From assembly GCA_031552535.1 (NCBI GenBank), contig JAVBMJ010000041.1, positions 1 through 64,000 on the forward strand: a stretch of 64,000 nucleotides of DNA, given 5' to 3'. The notes beneath the pieces were generated by a model. It did not search any database. It was not told where the DNA came from and was given only the letters and a program-made list of their open reading frames with translations. The stretch comes from Rikenellaceae bacterium (GTDB lineage: Bacteria > Bacteroidota > Bacteroidia > Bacteroidales > Rikenellaceae). Numbering within the stretch: the first letter of the stretch is position 1; every line of letters starts with the position of its first letter. Made by a program: the position numbers and the translations under genes. Shown piece after piece: positions 12,301 through 33,770 of the stretch.

Positions 12301-12387
12301 ATCTCAGATAGATTATTAATAACGGGGCGAATCCGGTAAACGGTAAATTTTATTTATGTTGACCCAGGTAAACCACCTGGCAAACCG

Positions 12388-16387: not shown

Positions 16388-16465
16388 TCTGTTAAAACCG
16401 TTAAGGCGTGTTAAGGAACTATTAACCAGAGCGACCATGCTATGTCGCGACAGTCACGCCGACGC

Positions 16466-17596
16466 CTAAATAAACTTCGACCAGACCGTACGGTTGATAT
16501 AATCCGTATATGATAGTATGATCCGTACAACCTTCTTCGAAACGTTGTCGGCATCGTAATCCGGGATCGGACGTATCGCCGTGGGGTTCTCATTGAACTG
16601 TGAAACAACCACCTCTATCGCATCGAGTATCCGTCCGCTTTCGAGGCCGGTCATAATCAGCGTCCCTTCGTCCATACCCTCCGGGCGCTCATGGGCCTGG
16701 CGGATGGTGATCGCCGGGAAACCCAGTATCGACGACTCTTCGGTGATCGTGCCGCTGTCCGATATGCAGCAATACGCATTCTGCTGCAGCTTGATATACT
16801 CCAGGAAGCCGAAAGGCTTCATGAACTCTATCATCGGATTGCTGTTCACAAACCCTATTGCTTCCAGCTTTTTACGCGTGCGCGGATGAGTCGATACAAT
16901 GACTTTTTTGCCATATTTGGCCACTATTGCCGACAGCGACTCCAGCAGGTCGCTGAAATTCTTCTCCGAATCGACATTCTCCTCGCGGTGGGTCGACACA
17001 ATGAAATAATCACCTTTCGAGAGTCCTTCGCGCTCCAGAATGTCCGATTTTTCGATATCCGCCTTATGGTGCTCCAACACCTCGCGCATCGGCGAACCGG
17101 TCTTTATCACCGTTTCCGGAGGCAACCCCTCGGCGACCAGGTATTTGCGGGCATGTTCCGACAGCGGCATATTGATGTCGCTCAGGTGGTCCACAATCTT
17201 GCGGTTGATCTCCTCGGGCACCCTCTGGTCGAAACAACGGTTACCCGCCTCCATATGGAAGATGGGTATCTTGCGCTTCTTGGCCGGGATCACCGAGATG
17301 CAACTGTTCGTGTCGCCGTAGAGCAACACCGCTTCGGGGCGCTCTTTCTCCATCACCTCGTCGGCCTTCATTATCACGTTGGCTATCGTCTCCGAAGCAT
17401 TCTTGCCTGCTGCATCGAGGAAATAGTCCGGTTTGCGGACTCCCAACTGCTGGAAAAATATCTCGTTCAGCTCGAAATCGAAATTCTGCCCCGTGTGCAC
17501 CAGCACATGGTTCGTGTATTTATCCAACTCGGCAATAACCCTGCTGAGTTTTATTATCTCGGGACGCGTCCCGACTATCGTCATAACTTTCAACAT
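16466..17596 (-). CDS. UDP-N-acetylglucosamine 2-epimerase, non-hydrolysing (FnlC/Cap5G/WecB family)
   Basis: 376 aa. N-terminus VGTRPEIIKLSRVI and HTGQNFD, a strong WecB-family match. Confidence 0.88.
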   Translation of the reverse strand: MLKVMTIVGTRPEIIKLSRVIAELDKYTNHVLVHTGQNFDFELNEIFFQQLGVRKPDYFLDAAGKNASETIANVIMKADEVMEKERPEAVLLYGDTNSCISVIPAKKRKIPIFHMEAGNRCFDQRVPEEINRKIVDHLSDINMPLSEHARKYLVAEGLPPETVIKTGSPMREVLEHHKADIEKSDILEREGLSKGDYFIVSTHREENVDSEKNFSDLLESLSAIVAKYGKKVIVSTHPRTRKKLEAIGFVNSNPMIEFMKPFGFLEYIKLQQNAYCCISDSGTITEESSILGFPAITIRQAHERPEGMDEGTLIMTGLESGRILDAIEVVVSQFNENPTAIRPIPDYDADNVSKKVVRIILSYTDYINRTVWSKFI

Positions 17597-17680: not shown

Positions 17681-18535
17681 TTAAGCAAAATAGTGCGGAT
17701 ACAACTCCTTATGGGAATCGACCCACTCCTTCATTTCAATAACCTGCTGCTCGTAGGAGGGCACCACGAACGAAAAATCGGTGCGCGTACACTTCAGCGT
17801 CTTATCGAGGCTCAATGCGTCCACAGGCTTGACAACCACCTCGCTGTTGCGGAAATAGCGGCTGAAGAGCCTCAGCAGTTCGTACTTCGAGATATTACTG
17901 TTGTTGACCAGGTTATACAGCCCCGTAAGATTCTCCCTGGCAGCCTGCTCCATGGCCTTGGCCAGCGTGAGGGTGGTCACCCCCGTCCACATCGCACCCG
18001 TGAAGCCGTTGATCTCGCCCTTCTGTTTCATAAACCAGTTGAAAAGGCCTATTCCCGCAGGATTCATATCGGGACCTATGATCGAGTTGCGGAACGTGAG
18101 ATTCCTGTCGTCTTCGATTTCGCCCAACGCTTTGCTGCGGTCGTAGAATGTCCGCCCGTCGCGCAAAGAATCCTCGGTGTAAGGGCCCGTGTTACCCGCA
18201 AAAACGCAGTCGGTGCTCATGTGTATAAACTTTGTCTTGCTGCCGCGTAACGTATCGGCGCACAGGTGCGGCAGATAACCGTTGAGGTACGCGGCCATTG
18301 CCTGGTTGTCTTCGGCCACCTGGTTGAGAATGCCGATGCAGTTCACGACCAGATCGTAATCTCCTTCGGTCAGCATCGCCTTGAACTTGTCGACCTCAAA
18401 GGCGTTGCCTACAATATTACGCACAAACGGGAACGGAGCCATGGAATAAGCCGTCACATCGTGGCCCTGTTCTTTGAAATAGAGGGTGATCGTATGGCCG
18501 GCCATGCCTATCGAACCCAGTATAAGTACCTTCAT
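17681..18535 (-). CDS. RmlD-like SDR reductase (FnlB / CapF N-domain equivalent)
   Basis: 284 aa. N-terminus MKVLILGSIGMAGH (Rossmann fold); resembles dTDP-4-dehydrorhamnose reductase-like sugar reductases. Confidence 0.7.
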   Translation of the reverse strand: MKVLILGSIGMAGHTITLYFKEQGHDVTAYSMAPFPFVRNIVGNAFEVDKFKAMLTEGDYDLVVNCIGILNQVAEDNQAMAAYLNGYLPHLCADTLRGSKTKFIHMSTDCVFAGNTGPYTEDSLRDGRTFYDRSKALGEIEDDRNLTFRNSIIGPDMNPAGIGLFNWFMKQKGEINGFTGAMWTGVTTLTLAKAMEQAARENLTGLYNLVNNSNISKYELLRLFSRYFRNSEVVVKPVDALSLDKTLKCTRTDFSFVVPSYEQQVIEMKEWVDSHKELYPHYFA

Positions 18536-18643
18536 GGTTTATTTCTTTTGTAATATTAACAACTCTCCCGCAAGAAAGCCTTTGTCTGCCAAAACTTCCC
18601 GGATGTTCTATGACGGAGTTACGTCATAGAACCGGACCGGTTC

Positions 18644-19081
18644 TTAAAATTTCGACCAGTCGACCCACATCCCGGCATCGTATCTCCACGAATCGAGAAC
18701 GGCATCGCTGAGTATCTTATCCGAATAGACCAGCATCAGCGAATCTCTCTCCAGCGCCTTGAACCCGTTGGCATACCCTTTGGGCACACACAACACTCCC
18801 GGGCGGTCGGCGGAAAGCACATATTCCTCCGCCCGGAGGTCGGACGACGGGGCGTCCCAGTCGTCTATCCTAACGAAAGCGCCGGCAAAGGATCCGCGCA
18901 ACACAGTGAACCACTTGCGCTCGTCCTGATGCGCATGCCAGGCCCTGACGACCGAACAATCGGGATGCATGATCGTGTAAAAACGGCGCACATGATCCAT
19001 ATCCAGCTCGTTGCAATGCGCTATCGAGCCGCGGTGGTCGGTAAAAATACCCCCTTCGATGAATCTTACGCTGTCGCTCAT
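18644..19081 (-). CDS. Cupin-fold sugar epimerase/isomerase (CapF C-domain / WxcM-like)
   Basis: 145 aa beta-rich small protein between fnlA and the SDR; His-containing cupin motif (HAHQDE). 4-bp overlap with fnlA. Confidence 0.55.
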   Translation of the reverse strand: MSDSVRFIEGGIFTDHRGSIAHCNELDMDHVRRFYTIMHPDCSVVRAWHAHQDERKWFTVLRGSFAGAFVRIDDWDAPSSDLRAEEYVLSADRPGVLCVPKGYANGFKALERDSLMLVYSDKILSDAVLDSWRYDAGMWVDWSKF

Positions 19082-20097
19082 AACCCCAGGTCTTCGCGGA
19101 TCATGTCGAGTTTGAGCAGCAACTGCGTCATACCCTCCACATCGAGGCGGTTGGTGTTGTGCGAGTGGTAATCCTCGAATGTCTTTACCTTCTCGTTGCC
19201 TTCCACGAAATAGGTGTCGTAGTTCAGGTCGCGCTCGTCGCAGGGTATACGGTAGTAATACCCCTCGTCGCTGGCCTTTGCCATCTCCTCGCGCGTAACC
19301 AACGACTCGTAAAGTTTCTCACCGTGCCGCGTCCCGATGGTGCGCACTGCGGTATCCGTCTTATAAAGCCCTATCAATGCCTTGGCCAGCGTATCCAAAG
19401 TCGCCGCGGGAGCCTTCTGTACGAAAAGGTCGCCGTTGTGCCCGTGCTGGAAAGCGTACATCACCAGATCGACGGCATCGTCGAGGGTCATCATGAAACG
19501 GGTCATGCCGGGATCGGTAACCGTTATATCCTTGCCTGCCTTGATCTGGTCGACCCAGAGCGGAATAACCGAACCGCGGCTGGCCATAACATTGCCGTAA
19601 CGCGTACAGCATATCGTGGTACCTCCATCAAGACCCAACTGGCGGCCGCGGGCTATGGCAACCTTCTCCATCATGGCCTTGCTGATACCCATAGCGTTGA
19701 TCGGATAGCAAGCCTTGTCGGTAGACAACACCACAACGTTCTTAACCCCGTGCTGGATAGCCGACTCCAATACATTCTCCGTCCCCAGGACGTTGGTACG
19801 CACAGCTTGCATCGGGAAGAACTCACACGAAGGCACCTGCTTCAGGGCGGCCGCCTGGAAAACGTAGTCCACATCCTTCATCGCAAAGTCTACGCTACGC
19901 TTATCCCTCACGTCGCCGATGTAGAACTTCACCTTCGGATTCTGCAACTGGTGACGCATGTCGTCCTGTTTCTTTTCGTCGCGGCTAAAAATGCGGATCT
20001 CTTTGATATCCGAATCGAGAAATCTCTTGAGCACCGCGTTGCCGAACGAACCTGTACCACCTGTTATCAACAGGATTTTGTCTTTAAAAACTGACAT
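19078..20097 (-). CDS. fnlA: UDP-N-acetylglucosamine 4,6-dehydratase (inverting) / 5-epimerase (FnlA/CapE/WbjB family)
   Basis: 339 aa. Family-defining N-terminus FKDKILLITGGTGSFGNAVLKRFL...EIRIFSRDEKKQ. Confidence 0.85.
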   Translation of the reverse strand: MSVFKDKILLITGGTGSFGNAVLKRFLDSDIKEIRIFSRDEKKQDDMRHQLQNPKVKFYIGDVRDKRSVDFAMKDVDYVFQAAALKQVPSCEFFPMQAVRTNVLGTENVLESAIQHGVKNVVVLSTDKACYPINAMGISKAMMEKVAIARGRQLGLDGGTTICCTRYGNVMASRGSVIPLWVDQIKAGKDITVTDPGMTRFMMTLDDAVDLVMYAFQHGHNGDLFVQKAPAATLDTLAKALIGLYKTDTAVRTIGTRHGEKLYESLVTREEMAKASDEGYYYRIPCDERDLNYDTYFVEGNEKVKTFEDYHSHNTNRLDVEGMTQLLLKLDMIREDLGL

Positions 20098-20103
20098 GGC
20101 TTA

Positions 20104-21201
20104 TTATGGTTTAATTAATTTGAAAAATTCCATCCATTCACTCCGGGTGCTGACCTCCATCGGCGTGCATTTCGCACCACCCGACTCATAAAGTCCCGTT
20201 ATAGCCTCCGCCCAAGCCCCGGCATCGCGGGCCGACACAAAACCGACACCACCGTAACCATCCAGAACCTCATGGGCAAACCCCTCGTCCGACGCCAATA
20301 CCCGAAGCCCTGCACCGGCGGCTTCGATCAGCGGCATGCCGAAGGTCTCTATGTAGCTCGGGAAAAGCAGGCCCGAAGCGCTCTTGTAATACGACAGCAA
20401 CTCGTCGTAAGGCATGAATTCATGGAATACGAAATTATCTTCAATCCCGTATTTCACGATTTCCCTCACCTCACCGGGAAGCTGCTCTTTCTTTACCGTA
20501 AAATGTATCCTTATACTGCGGGCCACCGCAGGATGTGCATCTTTGATAATGCGCATCGCTTCGACAAGCACCCGGTGATTCTTAAACACGAACGCCGTCG
20601 CAGGGTAGACCAAATGGAACAGCCCGTCGCCGAAATCTTTCTCCGGCACCCCGGCCCAATCCACAGCCTTGACATCGGGTCTTACTATCGCAACCTGCCC
20701 GTCGCCTACCCGGAAACGACGGATAAAAGCGTCTTTCACGGTTCGCGTCTGGACCACCACAGTAGTTAAGGGGGTAATGAACCGGCCCACGAACCAGCCG
20801 AATATATTTTTGTAATAAAACAGTTTAAGCTCATCCTTCTTAAACGGATTCCAGCACGTGCCGTCCAATGTAAGGAACTGGTGAAAATAGACGATCTGCC
20901 TTGCATCACTCCTCGTCCCGAGGTTGAACATCGATATCACGACGTCGGGCGTCATACCGCTCTCCTCCATCCAACGCTTGTCGATGCCCACGAACATGCG
21001 CTTCAATAACGCGGCCTTGCCCCTAAGGTCACGGTGCACGAAGCGGACATTATCCACCGGCGCATGACGATACTCCTCCGGCACGAATATAACATACTCG
21101 TGCTCCCGTCCGTAGCGGGAGATATTGTCAACAAACTGGTTCAAAATGGTCAACGCCCCGCTTACACGGCACGCCGACGCATCGACGATAACTTTCGACA
21201 T
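20104..21201 (-). CDS. Glycosyltransferase family 4
   Basis: 365 aa. GT-B fold features and C-terminal E-x7-E region (EAAGAGLRVLASDEGFAHEV). Confidence 0.7.
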   Translation of the reverse strand: MSKVIVDASACRVSGALTILNQFVDNISRYGREHEYVIFVPEEYRHAPVDNVRFVHRDLRGKAALLKRMFVGIDKRWMEESGMTPDVVISMFNLGTRSDARQIVYFHQFLTLDGTCWNPFKKDELKLFYYKNIFGWFVGRFITPLTTVVVQTRTVKDAFIRRFRVGDGQVAIVRPDVKAVDWAGVPEKDFGDGLFHLVYPATAFVFKNHRVLVEAMRIIKDAHPAVARSIRIHFTVKKEQLPGEVREIVKYGIEDNFVFHEFMPYDELLSYYKSASGLLFPSYIETFGMPLIEAAGAGLRVLASDEGFAHEVLDGYGGVGFVSARDAGAWAEAITGLYESGGAKCTPMEVSTRSEWMEFFKLIKP

Positions 21202-21207
21202 CGGCAG

Positions 21208-22476
21208 TTATTTTATTTCCCGCATATTATTACGTGCTGCATATTCATTTTTCAAAAGCGCCGCTAAGATCAGAAGCAACAGCACCAGGGTATCGTTATA
21301 GGCTTGCGACATCAAATTTATCAAAATAATCGCCAATATCAATACCTTTCCCAAAAGATAATTGTTGCGCATCAGCCTGAATAGAAAAAACAGGAACAGC
21401 ACTAACCCTATAATTCCACCGAATACCAGGCACTCCTGCATGCCGTTGAGGTACATCATGTTATCCAAATTGTAATATGCCATCTGAGCATATTCCGACA
21501 CATCATGCGTCTTTAAATATGATTCGAGGTTGCCTTGCCCGATGCCTATCACCTGCTCCACGGGGGTCAACTCGGAATAGAGCACATAGCCGCGATACAT
21601 CCTTATAAAGCCCGAGGTGTTGAACTCCCCTTCGGCCGACAGTTCGGACGAACGCGACAATACCGCAGTGGTCACCTGGTTTTCGGATGAATAACGCCCG
21701 CTCTGTAAAACAATAAAACCGGCAAGCACCACCAGTGCCGTCAGGCTGGCCTGTATGATGTAGCGGCCCCGCTTTATACATATAAAAATCCAGACGATCC
21801 AAAGCAGACCCAACAACAGGTAGCCATTGCCCGAACGTGACAACAGGATAATAGCAGAATAAAAGATCACAGGTATATCCACAAAACCCTTTCGGTCAAC
21901 GAACAGCTTAATACACAGATAACTCGCAACATAACGGGCAAAGTGGGAGGGCTCAAGAAAAACGGATGTAGAGCGGTCTATACTGCTTTGAATATCTATA
22001 TACGACCCTATCGATTCGCCGCTGGCCATTGGCAACCACGGGATTATGCCCAAAAGCCGGTAACCGGTGGTGAAAAAGAGCGCTTCCTGCACCAAAAACA
22101 GGATCGAACATGCCAGTGTAACCCGGCCGAATACCTTTATCAGATACTTCTGGTCTATATACCTCAGTCCGTATCCCAATGTCAACGCAAAGAACAGGGT
22201 GCTGATAGATTTATAGATAATATCCCCTAACGATGCGGTCCCTGCCAGCATCGAATACATCTGGGGAATCAGCATAATGTAAAGGAAATAGGTTAAATAA
22301 CCCTTGGGATAAACAGGATTGGTAAAATACCTTAATAAAAATCCCAGTCCGATGACCAATACGATCAGGACTTTACTGATCGACAGGCCGGGAATGCCCA
22401 CCCCATAAATATTGAGTATAGGCATTAATACGACCAGAACCGCCAGTATTTTATTATATGCCAAATTGCTTTGCAT
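21208..22476 (-). CDS. O-antigen/capsule repeat-unit polymerase (Wzy-like, O-antigen ligase family)
   Basis: 422 aa, ~10-12 predicted TM helices with a large periplasmic loop. Adjacent to wzx. Confidence 0.65.
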   Translation of the reverse strand: MQSNLAYNKILAVLVVLMPILNIYGVGIPGLSISKVLIVLVIGLGFLLRYFTNPVYPKGYLTYFLYIMLIPQMYSMLAGTASLGDIIYKSISTLFFALTLGYGLRYIDQKYLIKVFGRVTLACSILFLVQEALFFTTGYRLLGIIPWLPMASGESIGSYIDIQSSIDRSTSVFLEPSHFARYVASYLCIKLFVDRKGFVDIPVIFYSAIILLSRSGNGYLLLGLLWIVWIFICIKRGRYIIQASLTALVVLAGFIVLQSGRYSSENQVTTAVLSRSSELSAEGEFNTSGFIRMYRGYVLYSELTPVEQVIGIGQGNLESYLKTHDVSEYAQMAYYNLDNMMYLNGMQECLVFGGIIGLVLFLFFLFRLMRNNYLLGKVLILAIILINLMSQAYNDTLVLLLLILAALLKNEYAARNNMREIK

Positions 22477-22583: not shown

Positions 22584-24002
22584 TTATCTTCTGTCTCTGA
22601 TCAATGTCATGGCGGTATCTATTATATTGCGGCGTTCGATGTAAAAATAGGCCGCAGTCATAACGACCATGATACCCATAGCCTGGTAGAACCCACAGAA
22701 TGCGGTCGATAAAATAAATATCGCCAGGCCGACAGTTTCGAATATTATATTACGGTCGAAGGATTTGCCGAATTTACGCAACAAATATATCTCCGACAGA
22801 TAGCATCTTACGTACATCGCAATGAATGTGCACAACGCGATGACCCATATCTGGCGTGTGAACATGAAAGCCGGAATGACAAGAATCACAAACAGTCCCA
22901 GGCACTCCATATTGGTACGCAACAGCAGCCCTTCCTCGCGAGTGGCTTTATAGAAAGTCCCGTTCAGGATGTTCATCTTGCACTGCAGGTAAACTATCCC
23001 GAACAACAGGTTGAGATACGACAATACGGCTATATATTTGGGGTAAAAAACAGCGACCAGGATATAGGCGGGGAAGTACACCAGAAGGATAAGCAGTCCG
23101 AACGAGCGGGTAAAGGTGTTTATCTTATCGAAATAAGACCCATAATTTTCCTCGGGGAGCCGCTTGATTATGGGATAAAGCACCAGGCTGAACGCAGATA
23201 TAGCCATAAGGACTATGCTAGTGACGGTTATCCCGAACGAATATACGGCAAAATCCTTGATGTCGCACCAGAACTGGGTGATAAAACGGCCCGCAGCGAT
23301 CAGAAGTACACCCATCTGACTGGCAATCGTCAACTTTATTCCGCTGAATATATTCTCTTTATACTCCTTGACAACTTCGCCTTTGTCCGCCTCGGCTCTG
23401 CCTACCCACAGCTCTTTGGTGTGGAACATCATCATCGCAAGTATCCCCACGCGTGTGACTACATCGACCGCCACTATAATCCTGAAGTTCTTAGTACCAA
23501 TAACAACCATTGCCAGAATAGCCGCCAAAACCACCGCCTTATCCACGACAGAATAGAAACTGTAGCGTTTCATCTGGTTGGTGATCTGCAATACCCTTAC
23601 CAATAACCCGTAAAGCCCCATCAGCAAGATATTGAGCGAAGCGAAGATCATCGCAAAACGTGCCGCCGGGTCAGGAATGAACAAAGCCACTGCAACCATT
23701 GCGACGAGAGTCATACCCAGGAGCTGCCACATGTAGTATCTCGACGCGGGCCGCAATACCTTCATCGGCAACCTATGGTAATCATACTGGCCGTAACGCA
23801 GGAAAATACCCTCCTCGTACCCCAGGGTGAAAAGGGCATACACCGTAAAGTAAAAGAGATATACCGACAGGTAACCGTATGACTCCACAGACAGGAACGC
23901 CGGCAGAACCAATGACCTGACCACCCCGATAGCCATAACGACTATCTGGGCACCCAGGACATACGAAACACTCGTAAGGATATGTCGCCGCGTACTCTGC
24001 AT
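22584..24002 (-). CDS. wzx: Oligosaccharide flippase (Wzx, MOP superfamily)
   Basis: 472 aa, ~12-14 TM polytopic membrane protein with a Wzx-like N-terminus. Confidence 0.75.
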   Translation of the reverse strand: MQSTRRHILTSVSYVLGAQIVVMAIGVVRSLVLPAFLSVESYGYLSVYLFYFTVYALFTLGYEEGIFLRYGQYDYHRLPMKVLRPASRYYMWQLLGMTLVAMVAVALFIPDPAARFAMIFASLNILLMGLYGLLVRVLQITNQMKRYSFYSVVDKAVVLAAILAMVVIGTKNFRIIVAVDVVTRVGILAMMMFHTKELWVGRAEADKGEVVKEYKENIFSGIKLTIASQMGVLLIAAGRFITQFWCDIKDFAVYSFGITVTSIVLMAISAFSLVLYPIIKRLPEENYGSYFDKINTFTRSFGLLILLVYFPAYILVAVFYPKYIAVLSYLNLLFGIVYLQCKMNILNGTFYKATREEGLLLRTNMECLGLFVILVIPAFMFTRQIWVIALCTFIAMYVRCYLSEIYLLRKFGKSFDRNIIFETVGLAIFILSTAFCGFYQAMGIMVVMTAAYFYIERRNIIDTAMTLIRDRR

Positions 24003-24003
24003 C

Positions 24004-24795
24004 CTATTTCCGGTAAGCCTTGAACATATGATGCGACGTGCGCTTGTCTTCGGGAGGCAGTTGCATGTAATTTCCGTACAACTTTGTCAGAAGCAGGTCG
24101 TATTGCTTAGGAATATAGAAATCGGAATCCTCGAAAGGAGCCCTCACCACCTCGCCGATAGCATCGACCGGGAAACGGCGCTCTTTCTTGGCAAACGACA
24201 GATCCATCGCATACCTCGTTCCCGCCGCATCGTATTTCTGGCTCCATGCAATGTAGCGGCCCACTATCGAGCTGTTGCACACCGGTGAAAGGAGCAACTT
24301 GCCCACCATGAGGGCTGCGTTGCGCACCAGGCTGCGCTCACGGCTCAACTGCACTATCTTGAAATCCAGCATCCGCTTGTAGCGCTCGATCCTGGCGACA
24401 AAACGGTCCGACTCCGCCTCGTCTCCGGGCAGGGCGTCGATGGGAAAAATATCTATGTTGACTCCTATATCGAACTTTATCGAGGAGGCTTCTATCAAAA
24501 CCGTCTCCCGGTCGTACACCTTTGCGAAGGTCAACGGAAAACGGCGGTCTTTCTGGTAAGCCGCCACAGCGTAACGGCCATCGTCGAACGTCGCCAGGAA
24601 TTTCGCGTAATCCGCCCGCGGCATGGCAATATCGATATCGTCGTCCCAGGGGATGTACCCTTTATGCCTTATGGCCCCCAGCAAGGTGCCGTAATATAAA
24701 AAATAGCGGATCGAATTGGCTTCACAAAACTCATCCACAGCCTTCAGTATGTCTATCTGCAGAGCCTTGACATCATTTACCGTTAACTCATTCAT
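24004..24795 (-). CDS. LicD-family phospho-headgroup transferase
   Basis: LicD blocks [14 protein letters not shown] and [10 protein letters not shown]. The start is set at MNELTV; the ORF is open to 24873. Confidence 0.8.
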
Positions 24796-24878
24796 CGCAT
24801 ATTTTTTATCGTTACATTTTTTCTTTTCACTTTCGCTGCTCCTTTCTCCATTGCCTCCTGCGGCCGCAGGCACCTGAT

Positions 24879-25997
24879 TCAGCCTACCCTGAATATCTCC
24901 TTAGGTATATGCGACTCCACGGCGGCGGGATTGTTCTGCATACGCTGCAGGTTGACCGACGAGAGAATACTGCTCCAGGTGGCCTCGTCGAGTTTCGACC
25001 ATATATCCGTTTTACCGAACACCGACTCGAAAAACGCCGTCAACTCATGTGGAGTCTCTGCCGCGCAGCAACCGATGATAGTCGCTATTTCCGCTAACCG
25101 TTCCCGCACAAAATCTGCACCGCGCGGATCGTTGCACGTATCGGGCGTAACGGCGAGGTTGAGTTCAAAAAAATAAGGCAGCGTAAGCGACACCGCGTGT
25201 CCGTGCGGGATTCCCAGATATGAGGTAAACCCGTAGGAGTAGGCGTGGGCCGCGGTAGTGAAACTTATGTTTATCGCTTTGCCCGCAAGGTTGGCCGCAT
25301 ACGCCATATGATCCCTCGCCTCAGCCACTCCTGCTATGGCGTCAGGCAAATGACGCCATAGAATGTCTATAGCCTCACGGGCGTAACCACGCGACTCTTC
25401 GGTCGACTTCACGCTCCAGTACGACTCTATGGCCTGGCACAGCGCATCGGCGCCGGTCGAGGCTGTGAGATAACGCGGGCACCCGTAGGTGAGCGACGGG
25501 ATCAGCCAGACATAATCCGGAAGTACGTTCCCGTCGGCGACCGAATATTTCACCTTATCGATGTATACTACTGCGAAATGGGTCGATTCGCTCCCCGTAC
25601 CCGACGTGGTGGGAATCGCCAGCATGGGGATCAACTTCCCCGCTGCGATACGGTTGCATTTGATAGCTTCTGAAATATCGCCCTCGTAGCCGGCATAACT
25701 ACGTATCAATTTGGCCATGTCGATCACGCTGCCGCCGCCTACCGCCACTATCAAATCTATCCCGTTTTCCCGACACAACGCCACCCCCTTGTACAGATCT
25801 TCCAGTTTGGGATTGACGTCGAAGCCGGTAAAGTAGTGCGGCGAAGCCCCCTGTAGCAACGGCTCGACAAACTCTTTCGCACCTGAGGATGCATAAAAAG
25901 TCATATCGGTGACCACCAGTACATTCGCCGGAGACAAGGCTCCAATCTCCGCAGCAACCGAAGCGGCATCGTTTTTCAGATATATTTTTTGCTCCAT
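24879..25997 (-). CDS. Iron-containing (group III) alcohol dehydrogenase; predicted phosphonoacetaldehyde reductase (FomC/PhpC-like)
   Basis: 372 aa. [10 protein letters not shown] nucleotide-binding motif and His-rich metal site. Sits directly between the Ppd and LicD genes. Confidence 0.7.
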
Positions 25998-26120
25998 ACA
26001 GCACTCTCATAAAATGCACAATTCCCGACATGGCCGGGAGAATTGCGCTTAACACATTGACGGACACAGCCACAATTCCGGATAACTTCCAAAAAGGCTC
26101 CGGGGGATACAACAGTGTAT

Positions 26121-27263
26121 CTATTTACCCCCGGCCTGGCTGAGGAACTCCATCAGGCTCGCCTTATTCTCGACGGGTGTACTCTTCGGCCTTCCGAGAT
26201 CTTTGCGGGCACCTTTCTTAACACGTATTTCAAGCAGGGCAGGTCCTTCGGGCGCATTGCCATGCCCCTCAAAGAATTTCCTGATCTCCTCCACGCTACC
26301 GGCAACTGCAGCAGTGCGGTAACCCAACGCACGGGACAACGATATTATATCCACCCCTCCGGCAACCGTCGGCTGACCGCCCACAGAGTCGTGGGCACTG
26401 TTGTTGAATATGACATGCAGGTAATTCGACGGGTTGAGATTACCGACCGTCGCCATACCTCCCATCTGCATCAGCATGGCCCCGTCGCCGTCGAAGCAAT
26501 ACACCATGCGGTCGGGCTTGTTCAGGGCTATGCCCAACGCTATCTGCGAGGCATGCCCCATGGAACCTACCGTGAGAAAATCCCTCGAATGGTCCTGGCC
26601 TTTCTTCTCGCGCAATTCGTACAACTCCCGCGAAAGCATCCCCGTGGTAGAAACGATGACTCCGCGCTGATCGGTATGTGTCAGCACCTCCTCAAGGGCG
26701 TCCTCGCGCGAAAGCGGCGACAGCTCCTCAGGCTTATTGCAAAGTGTATAAGGAGCGAAAGTCTCCTTTTGTATCACCAAAGCAAAGGGAGCACTTTGTG
26801 TTTTTAAATATCCGAACGCCTTTTCGAGCTGTGCGGCCGCCTCCTGTTCCTCTTTCGACAACACCAGCGACGGGATATTCATCGCATCGAGCATCGGAAT
26901 GGTGACTTCGCCCTGCGACACATGCTGAGGTTCGTCCTTCACTCCCGGCTCGCCCCGCCAACCGATCAGCAAAAGCGTCGGAACGGAATAGACCTTACGG
27001 TCGACAAGCGACAACAGCGGGTTGGTGGCGTTGCCCAGACCCGAATTCTGCATGTAAACCACCGGGATATCCCCCGTGGCCAGGTGAAATCCGCAGGCAA
27101 GCCCAACGGCGGCACCTTCGTTGGCCGCGATTATATGACGGCCCTGCGGGGCGTTGTCGGTTATATAAGCACAGAAATCCTTGAGCAGCGAATCGGGCAC
27201 ACCTGCATAAAACAAAGCCCCCGAACTTGTCAACCGGTCATAAAAAAACTTGGTATCGAGCAT
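26121..27263 (-). CDS. Phosphonopyruvate decarboxylase (TPP-dependent)
   Basis: 380 aa. TPP motif GDGAMLMQMGG...NN, Ppd-like N-terminus, adjacent to PEP mutase. Confidence 0.85.
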   Translation of the reverse strand: MLDTKFFYDRLTSSGALFYAGVPDSLLKDFCAYITDNAPQGRHIIAANEGAAVGLACGFHLATGDIPVVYMQNSGLGNATNPLLSLVDRKVYSVPTLLLIGWRGEPGVKDEPQHVSQGEVTIPMLDAMNIPSLVLSKEEQEAAAQLEKAFGYLKTQSAPFALVIQKETFAPYTLCNKPEELSPLSREDALEEVLTHTDQRGVIVSTTGMLSRELYELREKKGQDHSRDFLTVGSMGHASQIALGIALNKPDRMVYCFDGDGAMLMQMGGMATVGNLNPSNYLHVIFNNSAHDSVGGQPTVAGGVDIISLSRALGYRTAAVAGSVEEIRKFFEGHGNAPEGPALLEIRVKKGARKDLGRPKSTPVENKASLMEFLSQAGGK

Positions 27264-27387
27264 AAATCATATGTTGTAGAACAGTTATCGAATCAAAAAC
27301 GTTGCACGCCGACCGTGCGACAACCGGGATCTCACAAAGGTATCTCTCGACCCGCAGAGCAGTGAAGGCCTCCCCCCGAAACATTGG

Positions 27388-28695
27388 TTATTTCGTACCC
27401 GGGATAAGTTCCAGTATCTCCTTGATGGGCATGCAGTACTCTTTCGAGGCCTCGTAGCAACGGTTGTTGACCAGGATCGACTTTGCGGCGTTCAACATGG
27501 CGGGATAAGCGCTGCGTAGCATGTGGTTGGCATAAATAACTATGTTTACCCCCCATTTTTCGAACTCTTCCTCCGTTATGTGGTTGAAGGTCGAAGGCAC
27601 GACAACTATCGGCGTATACTGGTCTTTGGCCCTGAATCCCTCGCAGAATTGCTTGATGTCCTCACCCGTTTTTTCCTTGCTGTGGATCATGATGCCATCG
27701 GCGCCGGCGGCGACGAACGCAAAAGCCCTCTCCAGGGCATCTTCCACGCTCTGGCCGCAAATGAGACTCTCTATGCGGGCTATTATCATGAAGTCGTCGG
27801 TGATCTGCGCCTTCTTGCCGGCCTTGATCTTCTCGCAGAACTCCTCTATCGTGGCCTGCTCCTGCGCAACCTCGGTGCCGAAAAGCGAATTTTTCTTCAA
27901 CCCCACCTTGTCTTCTATGATAACGGCCGAAACACCCAGGCGCTCCAGCGTGCGCACCGTAAATACGAAGTGCTCGATCTTGCCGCCAGTGTCGCCGTCG
28001 AAGATGATCGGCTTGGTGGTACACTCCAGCGAATCGTTCAAAGAGTGGAGGCGCGTGGTAAGGTCCACCGCCTCGATATCGGGCTTGCCTTTCGATGTCG
28101 AATCGGTGAGACTGCTCGACCACATTCCGTCGAACTCCTTCTTCTGACCGTTGACCTCGACCGACGTGTTCTCAATGATCAGTCCCGTAAGGCCGCTGTG
28201 CGACTCCAGTATACGCACTATCGGCTTGGCACCGATAAGGCGGCGTAGCCTCTTCATCCTGATCTCGGGAGTGGTCCCGATCTCCTTCAACTGCTGGTTG
28301 AGCATCGAGGAAGATATGCCTTTAGTATAGGGCACATCTATCACCTTGCCGCCCCATTCGGCCAACGTGTCGATGACCTGCTGCCTTACGTTCTTCTGGA
28401 CACCCTCTTTCCAGTCATCGCCGTGCACCACGAAATCGGGCTTCAACAACAACAGGTTGGGCCTGTAATCCAGAGTATCCTGGGGAACGACATTATCAAC
28501 ACCCTTGAGGTTTTCGACGATCAGTTTGCGTTGGTCGAACGAGAGGAATGGCAGGCGCTTGTAGCTTGCAATGGCTTTGTCCGTCAGAACACCCACCGTA
28601 ACTTTACCGTATTTGGCAGCCTCCTTTATGATATTTAGGTGACCGGGATGGATCAGGTCGGCACTCATTCCGACGTATACCGTGTTTTCTTTCAT
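27388..28695 (-). CDS. Bifunctional cytidylyltransferase-phosphoenolpyruvate mutase (Fom1-like CyTase-Ppm fusion)
   Basis: 435 aa. The N-terminal ~130 aa carry an HxGH nucleotidyltransferase motif ([11 protein letters not shown]). The remainder is the ICL/PEP-mutase fold with the catalytic region IIARIES and the EDK-type motif. Confidence 0.85.
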
Positions 28696-28707: not shown

Positions 28708-30225
28708 TTATCTGTTTATTTCTTCCTGGTAAACATTGCCCCACTGGTCTTTGGCTACCACTTTTACCGTGTTCCATGCAGCCGAAGGAGTGTAATAAAA
28801 CAAGTGGTTGGTAGTGATGGGCTCAACATGCGGAAACTTGGCCGGCACCTCCGGACCATAAAGCCTCGGATAAAGGAACGGATCGTAGTCCACGTAACGG
28901 GTCAGGCCGTTTTTTTTCAGAACCCCGTTCTCGTATACCTCCAGCGTCCACCTGTTGGGGTTCCAGTTCCAGATATTGGCTATGACGCTGTTGTTCTTCG
29001 ATGGCCAACTGCCAGGTGTGTAGAGCCTCATCTGGTAATTTTTGTCGCGATTCGTACCTTTATAATAAGCATTTACAATCTTATTGCCGCTTATCTCGTA
29101 AATCGCATAACCGTTGGGGCTGCCGTCAAAACTGGTGTCCTCGAACCAGAATACGCCACAGGCCGCCGAGATCACATCCTCCTCCATCTCCGCGGAAATA
29201 GTGGAGTTTATACAAAAATGAGAATGCCCCGACAGAAAACGCACATTATAACCCTGCAGCAATTCTAAAAGGCGGGCGTTGTTGGTCGTGCTGTAATATA
29301 CGGTCTTGATGGGAATATGCGCGGAAAGGATGATAAGTTTATCCTTAGGCACATATTGTAAATCTTTCTGCAACCATTCCAACTGCTCGCTTGAAACGGT
29401 TGCGGAATAAGTGCTTACGCCGTTATATATTATATTATCCAACACCACGAAATGGCAATCACCTATATTATAAGAATAGTAGGTTGGCCCCAACCATCTC
29501 TCATATTGCCAAGCCGCCTTACTGTCGCGGCCTGTCACTGTTTGATCGTAATCATGGTTGCCTATAACATGAAAAACAGGTGCGTCGAGTTTCTCGATAG
29601 CAGCCCTGTATCCGGGATAATAATCCATCCTGTCGAATACGGCATCACCCAGCATAACGCTGCTAACAGTCGTTGCTGCAGGAAACGATCCTATTACCGC
29701 ATTGACATCCTTGACCGTCTCGTTCTCGAATCGGGAAATATCACCTTCGTACCCTACCTGGGGATCGGCTATGGCCACCAGCACCTGTTCCGTGACCGGA
29801 ACAGGCCGCTTGTTCAGGCTGAAATAGGCCCATACCACATCTTTCGACTGATCGAGAGCTTGGTAAAACGCGGGAAGCGACCCCGTCCGCAAGTATTCAT
29901 AATCGGACGGAGCGATGACAAAAACAAATTTAGCGTCGTCGTTGCGTTTCATCTGATAGATCCCGTCCTCGTCGGTCTCTGCGATACTATATCCGTCGCT
30001 GACCAAAATACCGGCCACCGGAGCGCTACCGTCTTTGACCCGGCCCACGAGATTCATTCCTGAACGCACCTCGAAATCGGGGATCACCGGGTTGTGAAAA
30101 AGGGAAGTGTCGGGGTATTCCGGCCCGAAAAAATTCTCCGATCCTGCTCTATCGCACGAAGAGACCAAGGCACCCAGGAACAAAAATAATATTATACCAG
30201 AAATAAAATGTCTCATAAACAGCAA
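28708..30225 (-). CDS. Calcineurin-like metallophosphoesterase lipoprotein
   Basis: 505 aa. Lipoprotein signal ...LVSSC, GNHDYD motif and other MPE metal ligands, plus an N-terminal carboxypeptidase-regulatory-like beta domain. Confidence 0.75.
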   Translation of the reverse strand: MLFMRHFISGIILFLFLGALVSSCDRAGSENFFGPEYPDTSLFHNPVIPDFEVRSGMNLVGRVKDGSAPVAGILVSDGYSIAETDEDGIYQMKRNDDAKFVFVIAPSDYEYLRTGSLPAFYQALDQSKDVVWAYFSLNKRPVPVTEQVLVAIADPQVGYEGDISRFENETVKDVNAVIGSFPAATTVSSVMLGDAVFDRMDYYPGYRAAIEKLDAPVFHVIGNHDYDQTVTGRDSKAAWQYERWLGPTYYSYNIGDCHFVVLDNIIYNGVSTYSATVSSEQLEWLQKDLQYVPKDKLIILSAHIPIKTVYYSTTNNARLLELLQGYNVRFLSGHSHFCINSTISAEMEEDVISAACGVFWFEDTSFDGSPNGYAIYEISGNKIVNAYYKGTNRDKNYQMRLYTPGSWPSKNNSVIANIWNWNPNRWTLEVYENGVLKKNGLTRYVDYDPFLYPRLYGPEVPAKFPHVEPITTNHLFYYTPSAAWNTVKVVAKDQWGNVYQEEINR

Positions 30226-30232
30226 TACGATC

Positions 30233-31390
30233 CTATTTTCGGTCCATTATTTTTTGTATCTTCATAAAAAGCACCTCGCGGCGGGGGTTGTTGCGGCAAA
30301 TCACTCCCTGCATACGCACATAAAGCTGCGGTTTATTATTTTCGATGTACATTATCGTATAACAGCAACCGAACGACAAAAGCAGACTGGTGCCCAGGAT
30401 GAGATAGAACTGCGCCTCGTGCCCTATCCTGAACACCAATGCCGTTAATATCCACAACACGAACATGAACACATTGAGCATCAGCAGCTGGAATGTGGTC
30501 ATGACATGGCTGTTCCCCAGATCTATTATGATATGGTGAAAGTGCGTCTTGTCGGGCGAGAAGGGAGACTTGCCACGCATTATGCGGCTGGTCATAACCC
30601 TGATAGTATCGAAAATAGGTATCCCGAAAACGGCTATGACGAAGCTCACGCGGTAGTTGCTGTCGATATAAGTGCTGTCGCCCTCCAGTATGCGGATAAC
30701 GAATGCGCAGCAAATGATGCCCATCACCAGCGATCCGCCGTCGCCTATGAACATTTTGAACTTATGCCCGAAAACGTTGTGCATGAAGAAAGGGAACAGC
30801 GCGCCCAGCATGGCAGCCGAAAGTATGGCGAACGGCGTGTCGCCGCCTATGACGAAAAAGACTCCGCAAACGGCCGCGATGAACATGCCGTAGCCCGACA
30901 GCAACCCGTCGACGCCATCGATAAGGTTTATGGCGTTGGTGATGCCCACGCATGCGAACAGGGTCAACGGAATGGCGATGTAAAGCGAAATGCGATGTAT
31001 CCCCCACAGGCCGTGCAGGTCATCCATGAAGTACCCGCCCTGGAACATCAGCAGGCATACGGCAAGTATTTGCATCAGGAACTTGGTCGACGGCTTGAGG
31101 TTCAGGATATCGTCGGTGACTCCCGTGAACAACATCAACAGCATCGCCATAATGACGATAAACAACTGCGTGCAATCGCAGAAAAAACTCACGATACTAA
31201 GACATACGAATATCCCGAAGAACACCCCGACTCCCCCCAGCACGGGTATCGGCTCCTTGTTGAGCCTCCTTGCGTTGGGATTGTCGACTATAGACTTCAT
31301 TTTCGCAATCTTCACCAGATAGGGATGAGCGACGCTCACGGCTATTGCTGAAATGACGATGCTTAGCGGTATGATAATATAAAGGCTCAT
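30233..31390 (-). CDS. Polyprenyl-phosphate HexNAc-1-phosphate transferase (WecA/MraY family initiating transferase)
   Basis: 385 aa, ~10-11 TM. Contains a conserved DD motif and the family block NAINLIDGVDGL. Confidence 0.85.
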   Translation of the reverse strand: MSLYIIIPLSIVISAIAVSVAHPYLVKIAKMKSIVDNPNARRLNKEPIPVLGGVGVFFGIFVCLSIVSFFCDCTQLFIVIMAMLLMLFTGVTDDILNLKPSTKFLMQILAVCLLMFQGGYFMDDLHGLWGIHRISLYIAIPLTLFACVGITNAINLIDGVDGLLSGYGMFIAAVCGVFFVIGGDTPFAILSAAMLGALFPFFMHNVFGHKFKMFIGDGGSLVMGIICCAFVIRILEGDSTYIDSNYRVSFVIAVFGIPIFDTIRVMTSRIMRGKSPFSPDKTHFHHIIIDLGNSHVMTTFQLLMLNVFMFVLWILTALVFRIGHEAQFYLILGTSLLLSFGCCYTIMYIENNKPQLYVRMQGVICRNNPRREVLFMKIQKIMDRK

Positions 31391-31969
31391 GATATCAAAG
31401 AAAAACAGTAATTTCCAATTAACCCGGCAAGCAGCGACCTCTTACCTGATTACCATTTCATTTTGTATCTACCACAGCACTTTCCCATCCACACCCGATC
31501 CTCCGCCACGATTCCTTCACAGATTCTCCCAATGCGGCATACACAGGCCGCAAAGGTACTGATTATATTTTGAAATATGAAATCTCAACAGACTAATTAT
31601 GTGATGCAATGTCATTAAAATAAACAGGCGGCTCTTTGACCAACTATAAAATAACGCCTGCGGTCGGAATCGTATATAAAATCAGTTTTTAAGAGTCTGT
31701 CTAATTTTTTCATGTAAAATTTAAACAAACTTTCACATAGCCTGGTAGCTGCGCCGGCGACAAGGGAAAAGCCTGTATATTTCATAAAAAACCCGTAAAA
31801 ACACACCTGACTGCAATTATCCGGCGAGGTACGGGTGGCTGTACAATATTTTCGGTTTTCCGGAAGCATGCCGCAGATGCCGGCAGGAGTCAAAGGAGAT
31901 GCAAAGACAGGTATATTTTTTGTATAATTGCAGTATCATTAGTATTTTCATACCGTAAAAATCGCAACA

Positions 31970-32203
31970 ATGCCGGAAAACATATTGACTAAAGCCGCTA
32001 AATTCTATATCGATGGTTTCAGGTCGATGACATGGGGCAGGACGCTGTGGGTTATAGTGCTCATCAAACTGGCTATAATGTTCCTGGTGTTGAAACCGTT
32101 GTTTTTTCCACGCGTACTGAACCGCTTCGATTCCGGGGAGTCGCGCGCAAGACATGTGCTGGAACAACTAACAGACGATCATTATGATATTGGCAACGAG
32201 TGA
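31970..32203 (+). CDS. DUF4492 small membrane protein (cydAB-associated in Bacteroidetes)
   Basis: 77 aa, one TM, immediately upstream of and overlapping cydA. Confidence 0.7.
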   Translation: MPENILTKAAKFYIDGFRSMTWGRTLWVIVLIKLAIMFLVLKPLFFPRVLNRFDSGESRARHVLEQLTDDHYDIGNE

Positions 32204-32207
32204 AATA

Positions 32208-33770
32208 ATGCAGACCGTCGATTGGTCGCGTGCGCAGTTTGCCATGACGGCCATGTTCCACTGGGTGTTCGTACCGCTGACACTCGGACTTGGATTCATA
32301 TGCGCATTCATGGAGACCCGCTATTATCGGTCGGGCGACGGGTTCTGGAAACGCACGGCCCGTTTCTGGATGAAACTTTTCGGGATAAATTTCGCGTGCG
32401 GGGTCGCCACGGGGCTGATCCTTGAGTTCGAGTTCGGCACCAACTGGTCGAACTACTCCCATTTCGTAGGGGATATATTCGGCGCACCGCTGGCCATCGA
32501 GGGCATCGTGGCATTTTTCCTGGAGAGCACTTTCCTGGCAGTGATGTTCTTCGGCTGGAACAGGGTGTCGAAACGCTTCCACCTTACAGCCACATGGCTG
32601 ACCGCGGTGGGGGCGACCCTTTCGGCGTTGTGGATACTGGTCGCCAACGCCTGGATGCAATATCCGGTCGGGACGACGTTCAATATCGAGCGGGTGCGTA
32701 CCGAAATGTCGGATTTTTGGGAAATAGTCCTCTCACCTGTGGCGGTGACCAAATTTTTTCACACCACCCTCTCGGGATATGTGCTGGCATCGGTATTTGT
32801 GATGGGGGTCAGCGCATGGTTCCTGATCAGGGGCCGGGAGCGGCGCATGGCTTTGGCAAGCATTAAGATCGCGGGATGGTTCGGCCTGGTATGTTCGGTA
32901 CTGCTGGCCGTGACGGGCGATATGGCTGGGGCCGAGGTCGCCCGCCACCAGCCGATGAAACTCGCCGCTATGGAGGCGCACTACGACGGGGCCAAGGCTT
33001 CACCGCTGATATTGATAGGGGCTTTCAGGCAGAACGGTCCCACGGCCGAAGAGTCGTTCCGGTTCAAAGTAGAGATACCTTACATGTTGTCCATAATGAG
33101 TTTCCGTGATCGCTACGCCTTTGTGCCTGGGATCAACGACCTTCTTTACGGCAACAAGAAAGAGGGAGTGCGGTCGGTAAAGGAAAAAATGGAACGGGGC
33201 CGTATCGCCCGCGGGGTCATGGCCCAATACGCTGCGGCCCGGGAGGCGGGAGACCAGCATAGTGTCGACTCTTTGGCGCGTTGGTTCGATCCTTCGGACC
33301 AGGGAGGCAAGGCGTTCCTGTCGGGGTACTTCCGTTATCTGGGTTATAGCTACTTCTCGTCGCCGGAGGAGACCGTGCCCAATGTGCCGTTGTTGTTTTA
33401 CAGTTTCAGGGTGATGGTAGGCGCCGGATGCTACTTTATACTGATGTTCGCCGTAGCTCTATGGATGCTCTACCGCCGTAAAGTGGCAGACCGGCGCTGG
33501 ATGTTGCGGGCGATGCTCTGGTCGGTACCGCTTGCTTATGTTGCCGGATGGGCGGGATGGATCGTCACGGAGGTGGGGCGCCAACCGTGGACGATCTACG
33601 AGATGTTGCCTACGGTGGCTTCGGTATCGCACTTGGATCCGGGGGCTGTTAAGACGACGTTTTTTATTTTCCTGACGCTTTTCACCGTACTGCTCGCCGT
33701 AGAGTTACGGATCATGTTCCGCCAGATAGCCAAAGGACCCGACGATCCGGAAACGGAAACAGATAAGTAA
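32208..33770 (+). CDS. cydA: Cytochrome bd ubiquinol oxidase subunit I
   Basis: CydA N-terminus RAQFAMTAMFHWVFVPLTLG and the Q-loop region. The ORF is open from 32184. Confidence 0.9.
   Translation: MQTVDWSRAQFAMTAMFHWVFVPLTLGLGFICAFMETRYYRSGDGFWKRTARFWMKLFGINFACGVATGLILEFEFGTNWSNYSHFVGDIFGAPLAIEGIVAFFLESTFLAVMFFGWNRVSKRFHLTATWLTAVGATLSALWILVANAWMQYPVGTTFNIERVRTEMSDFWEIVLSPVAVTKFFHTTLSGYVLASVFVMGVSAWFLIRGRERRMALASIKIAGWFGLVCSVLLAVTGDMAGAEVARHQPMKLAAMEAHYDGAKASPLILIGAFRQNGPTAEESFRFKVEIPYMLSIMSFRDRYAFVPGINDLLYGNKKEGVRSVKEKMERGRIARGVMAQYAAAREAGDQHSVDSLARWFDPSDQGGKAFLSGYFRYLGYSYFSSPEETVPNVPLLFYSFRVMVGAGCYFILMFAVALWMLYRRKVADRRWMLRAMLWSVPLAYVAGWAGWIVTEVGRQPWTIYEMLPTVASVSHLDPGAVKTTFFIFLTLFTVLLAVELRIMFRQIAKGPDDPETETDK

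Follow-up and report, generated by a model that had tools for sequence, protein, structure and literature searches.

A phosphonate cassette in a Rikenellaceae surface-polysaccharide locus, predicted to supply CMP-activated 2-hydroxyethylphosphonate to a LicD-family transferase

Which phosphonate, if any, is placed on the surface glycan of a bacterium whose polysaccharide locus carries its own phosphonate genes? This question is raised by a 64,000-nucleotide stretch of DNA from a Rikenellaceae bacterium (GenBank assembly GCA_031552535.1, contig JAVBMJ010000041.1, positions 1 to 64,000; hereafter the window). Within a Wzx/Wzy-type polysaccharide operon of ~11.4-31.4 kb, a four-gene cassette on the minus strand (24004-28695) encodes a cytidylyltransferase (CyTase) fused to a phosphoenolpyruvate (PEP) mutase (Ppm), a phosphonopyruvate decarboxylase (Ppd), a group III alcohol dehydrogenase (ADH) and a LicD-family transferase. 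An earlier reading of the sequence (the original prediction) had proposed that these enzymes make 2-hydroxyethylphosphonate (HEP), activate it as CMP-HEP and attach it to a glycan. With the identity to Fom1, the substrate-binding residues of the ADH and the conserved gene context described below, this pathway is also our best reading. We put at roughly 60% the probability that the cassette is the head-group module of a capsule or O-antigen assembled by the Wzx/Wzy route, making CMP-HEP from which LicD decorates the polysaccharide.

The enzyme families agree with the description of four motif-supported minus-strand genes in the original prediction, and the motifs quoted there are present in the translations. 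In the fusion protein (435 amino acids (aa), 27388-28695), PF01467 (CTP_transf_like) covers residues 11-132 (E 2.4e-13) and PF13714 (PEP_mutase) residues 151-408 (E 5.9e-55). The fusion scores 410.3 bits against the PEP mutase model TIGR02320, with a cut-off of 319.55, and its translation contains the motif EDKxxxxxNS, which is used in PMC6697681 to recognize Ppm. Its mutase domain (residues ~148-435, 27388-28254), the part predicted to form the C-P bond, matches the structures 5unc and 1m1b. The thiamine pyrophosphate (TPP)-dependent Ppd (380 aa, 26121-27263) scores 501.4 bits against the phosphonopyruvate decarboxylase model TIGR03297 (cut-off 312.5) and has the TPP motif GDGAMLMQMGG...NN. 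At the level of sequence these family assignments are established, Ppm and Ppd both lying above the curated cut-offs.

The N-terminal domain of the fusion (residues 1-140, 28276-28695) had been likened to the CyTase of Fom1, and the comparison upholds the likeness. The domain carries the nucleotidyltransferase motifs HPGH (HxGH) and YTKGISSS ((R/Y)TxGIS(S/T)), and residues 3-139 are 62% identical over 137 aa (E 1e-58) to the crystal sequence of the Fom1 CyTase (PDB 5x3d), a PF01467 enzyme, whereas PntC belongs to PF12804. Fom1 is cited in PMC6697681 as the enzyme shown to make CMP-HEP, and from 62% identity to this one characterized enzyme we infer that the domain converts HEP and CTP to CMP-HEP. 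The window's value is not special in this respect: all 85 fusions that we collected are 59-69% identical to Fom1, and fusions of PF01467 to Ppm account for 23.6% of all Ppm proteins (PMC6697681), so that the architecture is a common one and no sign of rarity. By itself, the CyTase-Ppm fusion is not diagnostic of HEP.

The gene that does discriminate the HEP route is the ADH, a protein of 372 aa (24879-25997) with matches to PF00465 and PF25137, in which the signature motif quoted in the original prediction starts at residue 87. Its closest solved relative is 6jko/6jkp; 6jkp, a sulfoacetaldehyde reductase, is the structural reference and template that was used for the phosphonoacetaldehyde reductase PhpC (PMC13576164). 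In the PhpC of P. fungorum, Lys157 and Arg349 clamp the phosphonate, and Tyr264 is strictly conserved and is replaced by Phe in sulfoacetaldehyde reductase (PMC13576164). The window ADH has Tyr255 four residues past its metal-binding His251, where 6jko has Phe, and Lys150 and Arg352 lie in the regions of PhpC Lys157 and Arg349, an equivalence that is positional and not drawn from an alignment to the P. fungorum sequence. These three residues (K150, Y255, R352) are invariant in 77-80 of 80 aligned Ppm-linked ADHs. The metal ligands D184, Q188, H251 and H265 align with D192, Q196, H261 and H275 of 6jko/6jkp; the second of them, Gln188, is as in the sulfoacetaldehyde reductase 6jkp, whereas the characterized P. 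fungorum PhpC has His at this position. Gln is the majority state there, being found in 67 of the 80 Ppm-linked ADHs.

The genomic company of the ADH points the same way as its residues. In the window its gene adjoins ppd, and clustering with ppm and ppd is the criterion by which Lockwood et al. 2022 recognized such reductases. A search retrieved 3,712 homologues at E <= 1e-20, the nearest 58% identical; homologues at 45% identity are named 'phosphonoacetaldehyde reductase' by NCBI. Relative to the ADHs of other Bacteroidales cassettes the window ADH lies on a different sub-branch, together with sequences from termite gut and other metagenomes to which it is 54-58% identical. ADH homologues were looked at in four more independent contexts, and each of their genes abuts a CyTase-Ppm gene; Ppd is also present in nearly all contexts examined. 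One such context (L007, ADH 44% identical) includes a cupin that matches methylphosphonate synthase (MpnS) 6b9s with an E value of 8e-79. The substrate of MpnS is HEP, so that the ADH in this methylphosphonate-type cluster most likely supplies HEP.

Genes of competing routes were sought in ~40 open reading frames (ORFs) of the window, including every ORF of the size expected for a transaminase that makes 2-aminoethylphosphonate (AEP). No such transaminase (PF00266, class V, PhnW/AepZ) was found among them, as the original prediction had stated. Likewise, Fom3 (a B12 radical SAM enzyme), Fom4 (HppE cupin) and FomD were found neither in the locus nor in the window ORFs scanned, and the view that this is not a fosfomycin cluster holds on gene content. 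The HEP-consuming enzymes MpnS and HEPD were not found in the window ORFs either; the one cupin seen has 145 aa and resembles sugar isomerases.

The original prediction had called the arrangement an unusual way of making a phosphonoglycan, and this part does not stand. The fusion protein was used to scan 185,579 species-representative genomes, which gave 431 relatives; for the best 80 of these (74-80% identical) we analysed the neighbourhoods by tblastn and ORF clustering. The best 80 loci come mostly from metagenome-assembled genomes (MAGs) of rumen and gut Bacteroidales, and also from Treponema, Fibrobacter, Capnocytophaga cynodegmi, Polaribacter, Olivibacter and others. The full Ppm/Ppd/ADH trio is present in 71 of them, most of the others being cut by contig ends. 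The order is nearly always Ppm-Ppd-ADH; Ppm-ADH-Ppd is found in a branch of Treponema, Fibrobacter and Salinivirgaceae. Immediately beside the block, 30 of the 80 loci have a LicD-like gene, and 40 have one at a distance of up to 10 kb; some related loci carry a TagF-like Glyphos_transf gene in place of LicD. No class-V transaminase family recurs among the cassette neighbours in ~90 loci, where the sole recurrent aminotransferase is a DegT sugar enzyme.

The same gene order occurs in named and cultured species. A chromosome of B. fragilis (CP192715.1, 1669326-1686630, locus L092) and hundreds of human-gut contigs have the arrangement UpxY-UpxZ-GT4(WecA-like)-CyPpm-Ppd-FeADH-LicD-Wzx, where GT denotes a glycosyltransferase. 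For two B. fragilis fusion proteins of these classic capsule loci (L090-L097), the index of the contig collection lists 588 and 1,630 blocks. Porphyromonas macacae (KB904124.1, L098) has RmlA-RmlB-CyPpm-Ppd-ADH-LicD-Wzx-GT2-Wzy. Given the order Ppm-Ppd-ADH-LicD-Wzx in both species, the order in the window is that of a standard Bacteroidales cassette. Every named Bacteroides or Porphyromonas match that we examined is of the ADH type. By the block counts, B. fragilis populations commonly carry an ADH-type (predicted HEP) capsule locus beside the textbook AEP-type polysaccharide B (PSB) locus of NCTC 9343. Earlier surveys had already inventoried this class. Neighbourhoods with Ppd and PhpC (the 'HEP' class) make up 8.5% of ppm neighbourhoods and are noted from pathogens such as Helicobacter cinaedi and Campylobacter jejuni (Li & Horsman, PMC8942020). 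Neighbourhoods with pepM-aepY-phpC, a 'lipopolysaccharide choline phosphotransferase' (LicD) and glycosyltransferase genes were reported by Lockwood et al. 2022 (PMC9381506), who suggested phosphonate esters, and cytidylyl activation followed by LicD-like transfer was proposed for surface phosphonates by Rice et al. 2019 (PMC6697681). The window locus is a further member of this known cluster type.

Several variants of the cassette were seen in passing. In L005/L006 (6698-9119) and L071/L074 (9998-12411) the ADH gene directly follows CyTase-Ppm, and a search of these loci for Ppd gave none. One Salinivirgaceae MAG has a Ppm-Ppd-Glyphos_transf-Wzx-Wzy locus without ADH (L023, 5598-12518) and a second locus with the full Ppm-Ppd-ADH trio (L056), and both phosphonoglycan loci may draw on one ADH in trans. 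Fibrobacter MAGs (L072 and L080, 9035-13534) have the order LicD-Ppm-FeADH-Ppd, the PF00465 assignment being confirmed for L072.

The LicD-family protein (24004-24795 on the minus strand) scores 151.5 bits against PF04991, for which the cut-off is 22.6, and has the acidic motif PWDDDIDIA (DDDID). Its ORF was listed from a GTG at 24873; the likelier start is the ATG at 24795 (MNELT...), which gives a protein of 263 aa, the usual length of its homologues. It is probably cytoplasmic, because it has no hydrophobic segment. The CyTase domain is the only nucleotide-activating enzyme encoded in the locus, which has no further nucleotidyltransferase; LicA and LicC are also missing from all window ORFs scanned. 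From this gene context, LicD is predicted to use CMP-HEP as its donor and to place the HEP-phosphonyl group on the repeat unit.

The nearest LicD relatives are found in a different setting. They adjoin a gene for a 600-aa fusion of NTP_transf_3 and Aminotran_1_2 (class I-II) and an OCD_Mu_crystall or Octopine_DH gene, a module that looks as if it makes a different CDP-activated amino-alcohol-phosphate head group, possibly an opine-like one. No phosphonate genes are present in the three contexts of these relatives that were examined (L099/L100 4066-14795, L101 and L102). The genes after LicD in L099/L100 are syntenic with those of the window, namely the Wzx candidate (41% identical), a GT1 glycosyltransferase (32%), an FnlA-like dehydratase (82%) and a cupin (50%). 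The simplest reading of these sequences is a modular one, in which a conserved unit of LicD, flippase and backbone genes was joined, from lineage to lineage, to supply modules for different head groups.

Put together, the proposed pathway would start with the PEP mutase domain, which would convert PEP to phosphonopyruvate. Ppd would decarboxylate this to phosphonoacetaldehyde and so pull the unfavourable equilibrium forward, and the PhpC-type ADH would then reduce phosphonoacetaldehyde to HEP. These steps from PEP to HEP are strongly inferred from homology and conserved context. The Fom1-like domain would next combine HEP with CTP to give CMP-HEP. At the cytoplasmic face, CMP-HEP would be the donor from which the soluble LicD places a hydroxyethylphosphonyl group on a sugar hydroxyl of the undecaprenyl-diphosphate-linked repeat unit, with release of CMP; this unit would have been started by the WecA-like enzyme and would contain a sugar of the N-acetyl-L-fucosamine (L-FucNAc) type. 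Finally, Wzx would flip the decorated unit and Wzy would polymerize it.

A number of observations weigh against this reading. The ADH scores 160.8 bits against TIGR03405 (Phn_Fe-ADH / PsrA), below the cut-off of 423.7, and is therefore not a member of that PsrA-type subgroup. The AepX protein of the AEP-making PSB locus of B. fragilis is 48.9 kDa (PMC12619172), the size of the fusion, so that AepX is likely fused too; a CyTase-Ppm fusion is then probably also used in an AEP-making locus, and the CyTase domain of the window may accept AEP as well. In Fibrobacter, F. succinogenes has N-hydroxyethyl-AEP as its only reported phosphonate, as cited in PMC8942020, and the ppm neighbourhood of strain S85 is described as being without any known branch-point enzyme. 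With an ADH cassette present in this genus, an ADH beside Ppm is no guarantee of HEP as the end product, and in Fibrobacter the cassette may serve to make a compound that is not a simple HEP ester. The LicD proteins nearest to that of the window, at 43-47% identity, are coupled to another head-group module, which means that the donor cannot be read from the LicD sequence and must be taken from context; LicD gives no independent support for the donor. The transaminase check spans 64 kb of genome. Product chemistry has been reported neither for the source organism nor for any Bacteroidota that carry the cassette.

What else could the locus be doing? The glycan might carry AEP, as in B. fragilis PSB, if a transaminase encoded elsewhere in the genome made AEP, the fused CyTase turned it into CMP-AEP and the ADH had a side or salvage activity. 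With 56% of ppm neighbourhoods, AEP is by a wide margin the most frequent surface phosphonate (PMC8942020), and it is the only one chemically shown in Bacteroides, and the fusion-sized AepX and the 64-kb span of the transaminase search both leave room for this route. Against it stand the missing PF00266-type transaminase, in the window as among the recurrent neighbours of the ~90 related loci, and the ADH, which adjoins Ppd or Ppm in almost every relative with the substrate-binding residues of PhpC kept. In addition, the Ppm-fused enzymes with an experimentally shown preference for AEP belong to another family, PF12804 (PMC6697681). We regard AEP as quite unlikely to be the head group. It is also unlikely, if slightly less so, that the HEP produced is changed further, so that the glycan ends up with a different decoration. 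HEP could, before or after its transfer, be O-acylated, methylated or used for a teichoic-acid-like bridge through its free hydroxyl, for example, or it could be condensed into a group of the N-hydroxyethyl-AEP type. The 2-hydroxyl of HEP is indeed free and chemically available, the trio is paired in related loci with TagF-like Glyphos_transf enzymes of the polymerase type and not with LicD, and both the Fibrobacter cassettes and the FabH-like, SDR (short-chain dehydrogenase/reductase), GNAT-like and deacetylase proteins at the 3' end of the locus could be read in this sense. Yet no known HEP-modifying enzyme (MpnS, HEPD, Fom3 or a methyltransferase) was found in the locus, the window has a single LicD and no Glyphos_transf gene, and the acyl-type genes are more simply explained by N-acylation of an amino sugar.

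A very unlikely alternative separates the transferase from the phosphonate altogether: LicD would use a donor made elsewhere, such as CDP-choline, a CDP-ethanolamine-type compound or CDP-ribitol/glycerol, and the phosphonate would go to lipid, protein or a free metabolite. The different head-group module of the nearest LicD relatives, the LicD-Wzx-...-FnlA backbone that these relatives share with the window, and the half of related phosphonate loci that have no LicD-like gene within 10 kb all fit such a separation. The synteny is, however, more naturally read as the swap of a supply module before a LicD that takes whichever CMP- or CDP-activated head group is supplied. Apart from the CyTase domain the window locus encodes no nucleotidyl-activating enzyme, and choline kinase and LicC are missing from it too; LicD begins 5 nt after the ADH gene (83 nt if counted from the ATG at 24795) and overlaps the start of Wzx. 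A LicD that acts on the phosphonate is also favoured by the position of LicD-like genes directly beside the phosphonate block, which was seen in 30 of the 80 loci as well as in B. fragilis and P. macacae.

The genes around the cassette are those of a surface-polysaccharide operon, all on the minus strand, with the core operon genes tightly packed (intergenic gaps of -1 to 124 nt) and the 3' end of the operon at 11452. About 160 nt upstream of the first operon gene, the sequence TACCTTTG (31551-31558, minus strand) matches the Bacteroidetes -7 promoter consensus TAnnTTTG, a consensus match only. A phase-variable invertible promoter upstream of the operon was considered and ruled out, as no inverted repeats were found in 31300-32250. 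The first gene (30233-31390) encodes a WecA-like initiating phosphoglycosyl transferase of 385 aa with nine hydrophobic segments and a PF00953 match (E 2e-29), which scores 162 bits against TIGR02380, below the cut-off of 326. The original prediction had this initiator preceding the cassette; the gene is present, but another one intervenes, which encodes a lipoprotein metallophosphoesterase of 505 aa (28708-30225) with MetallophosN, Metallophos and MetallophosC domains.

This metallophosphoesterase gene sits between the WecA and Ppm genes in the same orientation, with gaps of 7 and 12 nt. No homologue was found in any of ~95 related phosphonate loci, and the gene is outside the conserved cassette. 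Because the protein is a lipoprotein (LVSSC lipobox) it should be extracytoplasmic, and it may be a surface phospho- or phosphono-esterase or an unrelated passenger. A role as a FomD-like hydrolase of CMP-phosphonates was ruled out, the protein being a lipoprotein and absent from all related loci.

Downstream of LicD, where the original prediction had placed Wzx and Wzy, candidates for both are present. The probable Wzx-type flippase (472 aa, 22584-24002) has no match to any Pfam or NCBIfam family; it is recognized only by its position, by ~12 hydrophobic stretches of transmembrane length and by weak homology, with 26% full-length identity to a PF01943 protein in L058 and the 41% identity to the gene after LicD in L099 given above. 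The probable Wzy polymerase (422 aa, 21208-22476) matches Wzy_C with an E value of 2.5e-4, under Pfam's threshold. The backbone genes that come next look like an L-FucNAc-type pathway with glycosyltransferases: domain searches identify a GT1 glycosyltransferase (20104-21201), an FnlA/CapE-like dehydratase (19078-20097; 552 bits against TIGR04130 FnlA, below the cut-off of 730), the 145-aa sugar-isomerase-like cupin (18644-19081), an RmlD-like reductase of 284 aa (17681-18535), a UDP-GlcNAc 2-epimerase (16466-17596) and a GT4 glycosyltransferase (15155-16438).

In the interval 17681-19081 the CapF/FnlB-type step seems to be split into the 145-aa cupin and the 284-aa RmlD-like reductase, 108 nt apart, and the same split, cupin followed by SDR, is also present in L099. 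The cupin was considered as a HEP dioxygenase and ruled out, as it has the wrong size (MpnS and HEPD are ~450 aa) and matches sugar-isomerase families; it lies among the FnlA/CapF-like sugar genes and is conserved together with them in L099. At the 3' end of the operon (11452-15136) are genes for a FabH-like KAS III, an SDR, a 355-aa GNAT-like protein and a polysaccharide deacetylase (DUF3473), which possibly provide an unusual N-acyl decoration of an amino sugar.

How does the locus compare with systems of known or proposed chemistry? It shares with Fom1/Fom2/FomC of Streptomyces wedmorensis the CyTase-Ppm didomain, Ppd and a group III ADH, and the predicted order HEP, then CMP-HEP. The Fom3 methyltransferase, Fom4 epoxidase and FomD hydrolase of the fosfomycin pathway are missing from the window, its cassette lies within a Wzx/Wzy operon, and CMP-HEP, a transient intermediate in the antibiotic pathway, is here the predicted glycan donor. 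The PSB locus of B. fragilis NCTC 9343 (aepX-aepY-aepZ) resembles the window in phylum, in locus type, in Ppm and Ppd, and in the placing, predicted for the window, of a phosphonate on a capsule repeat (PMC6697681, PMC8942020, PMC12619172), but PSB has an AEP transaminase, AEP and a zwitterionic glycan, whereas the window has the PhpC-type ADH in that position and no transaminase. The other Bacteroidales Ppm-Ppd-FeADH-LicD-Wzx cassettes are identical in gene content and order, with sequence identities of 74-80% for Ppm, 50-60% for Ppd, 35-45% for ADH and 26-39% for LicD. They are only generically annotated, and the window differs from them by the added metallophosphoesterase gene and its other ADH sub-branch.

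The Pnt model (PntC and a LicD-like enzyme; PMC6697681), patterned on the Lic phosphocholine pathway, has the same logic of cytidylyl activation and LicD-type transfer to a glycan. PntC is, however, a LicC-like PF12804 enzyme that prefers AEP, while the domain in the window belongs to PF01467 (Fom1/GCT-like) and has HEP as its predicted substrate. In predicted product class, HEP esterified to a polysaccharide, the window matches the HEP phosphonoglycans known from Glycomyces and Stackebrandtia (Yu et al. 2014, cited by PMC8942020 and PMC13576164) and also the HEP/methylphosphonate esters of marine polysaccharides. All of these come from other phyla and habitats, and in the marine clusters, with L007 as an example, MpnS is present in addition. 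The original prediction had noted no HEP-glycan described for a Bacteroidetes capsule or O-antigen. In line with this, a 2026 paper cites chemically characterized HEP-glycans from two actinomycetes only (PMC13576164), and our literature search found no report of HEP in a Bacteroides glycan.

The value of the window lies mainly in being one more example of this cluster type. The comparative result is more interesting: the cassette is widespread in gut Bacteroidales, B. fragilis included, and cultured carriers exist, namely B. fragilis strains, Porphyromonas macacae (GCA_000379945.1) and Capnocytophaga cynodegmi DSM 19736, which are better experimental entry points. We advance tentatively, at a little under even odds, the wider proposal that in gut and rumen Bacteroidales, many B. 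fragilis strains among them, capsules and O-antigens commonly bear HEP rather than AEP as their phosphonate head group. In this proposal LicD-family or TagF-like transferases would attach HEP, with CMP-HEP as the donor, the Fom1-type fusion would be a possible marker of the HEP route, and the supply module would be exchangeable before the LicD-Wzx backbone. If the predicted chemistry is right, HEP esters would add a phosphonate chemotype to Bacteroidales surface glycans, for which AEP alone has been chemically shown so far. As HEP is without the amine of AEP, HEP glycans would be anionic, not zwitterionic, variants of the immunomodulatory B. fragilis polysaccharides. Given the abundance of the cassette in human-gut and rumen genomes, they could represent a sizeable, overlooked sink of reduced phosphorus in the gut, and they could be a variable surface antigen that affects phage and immune recognition.

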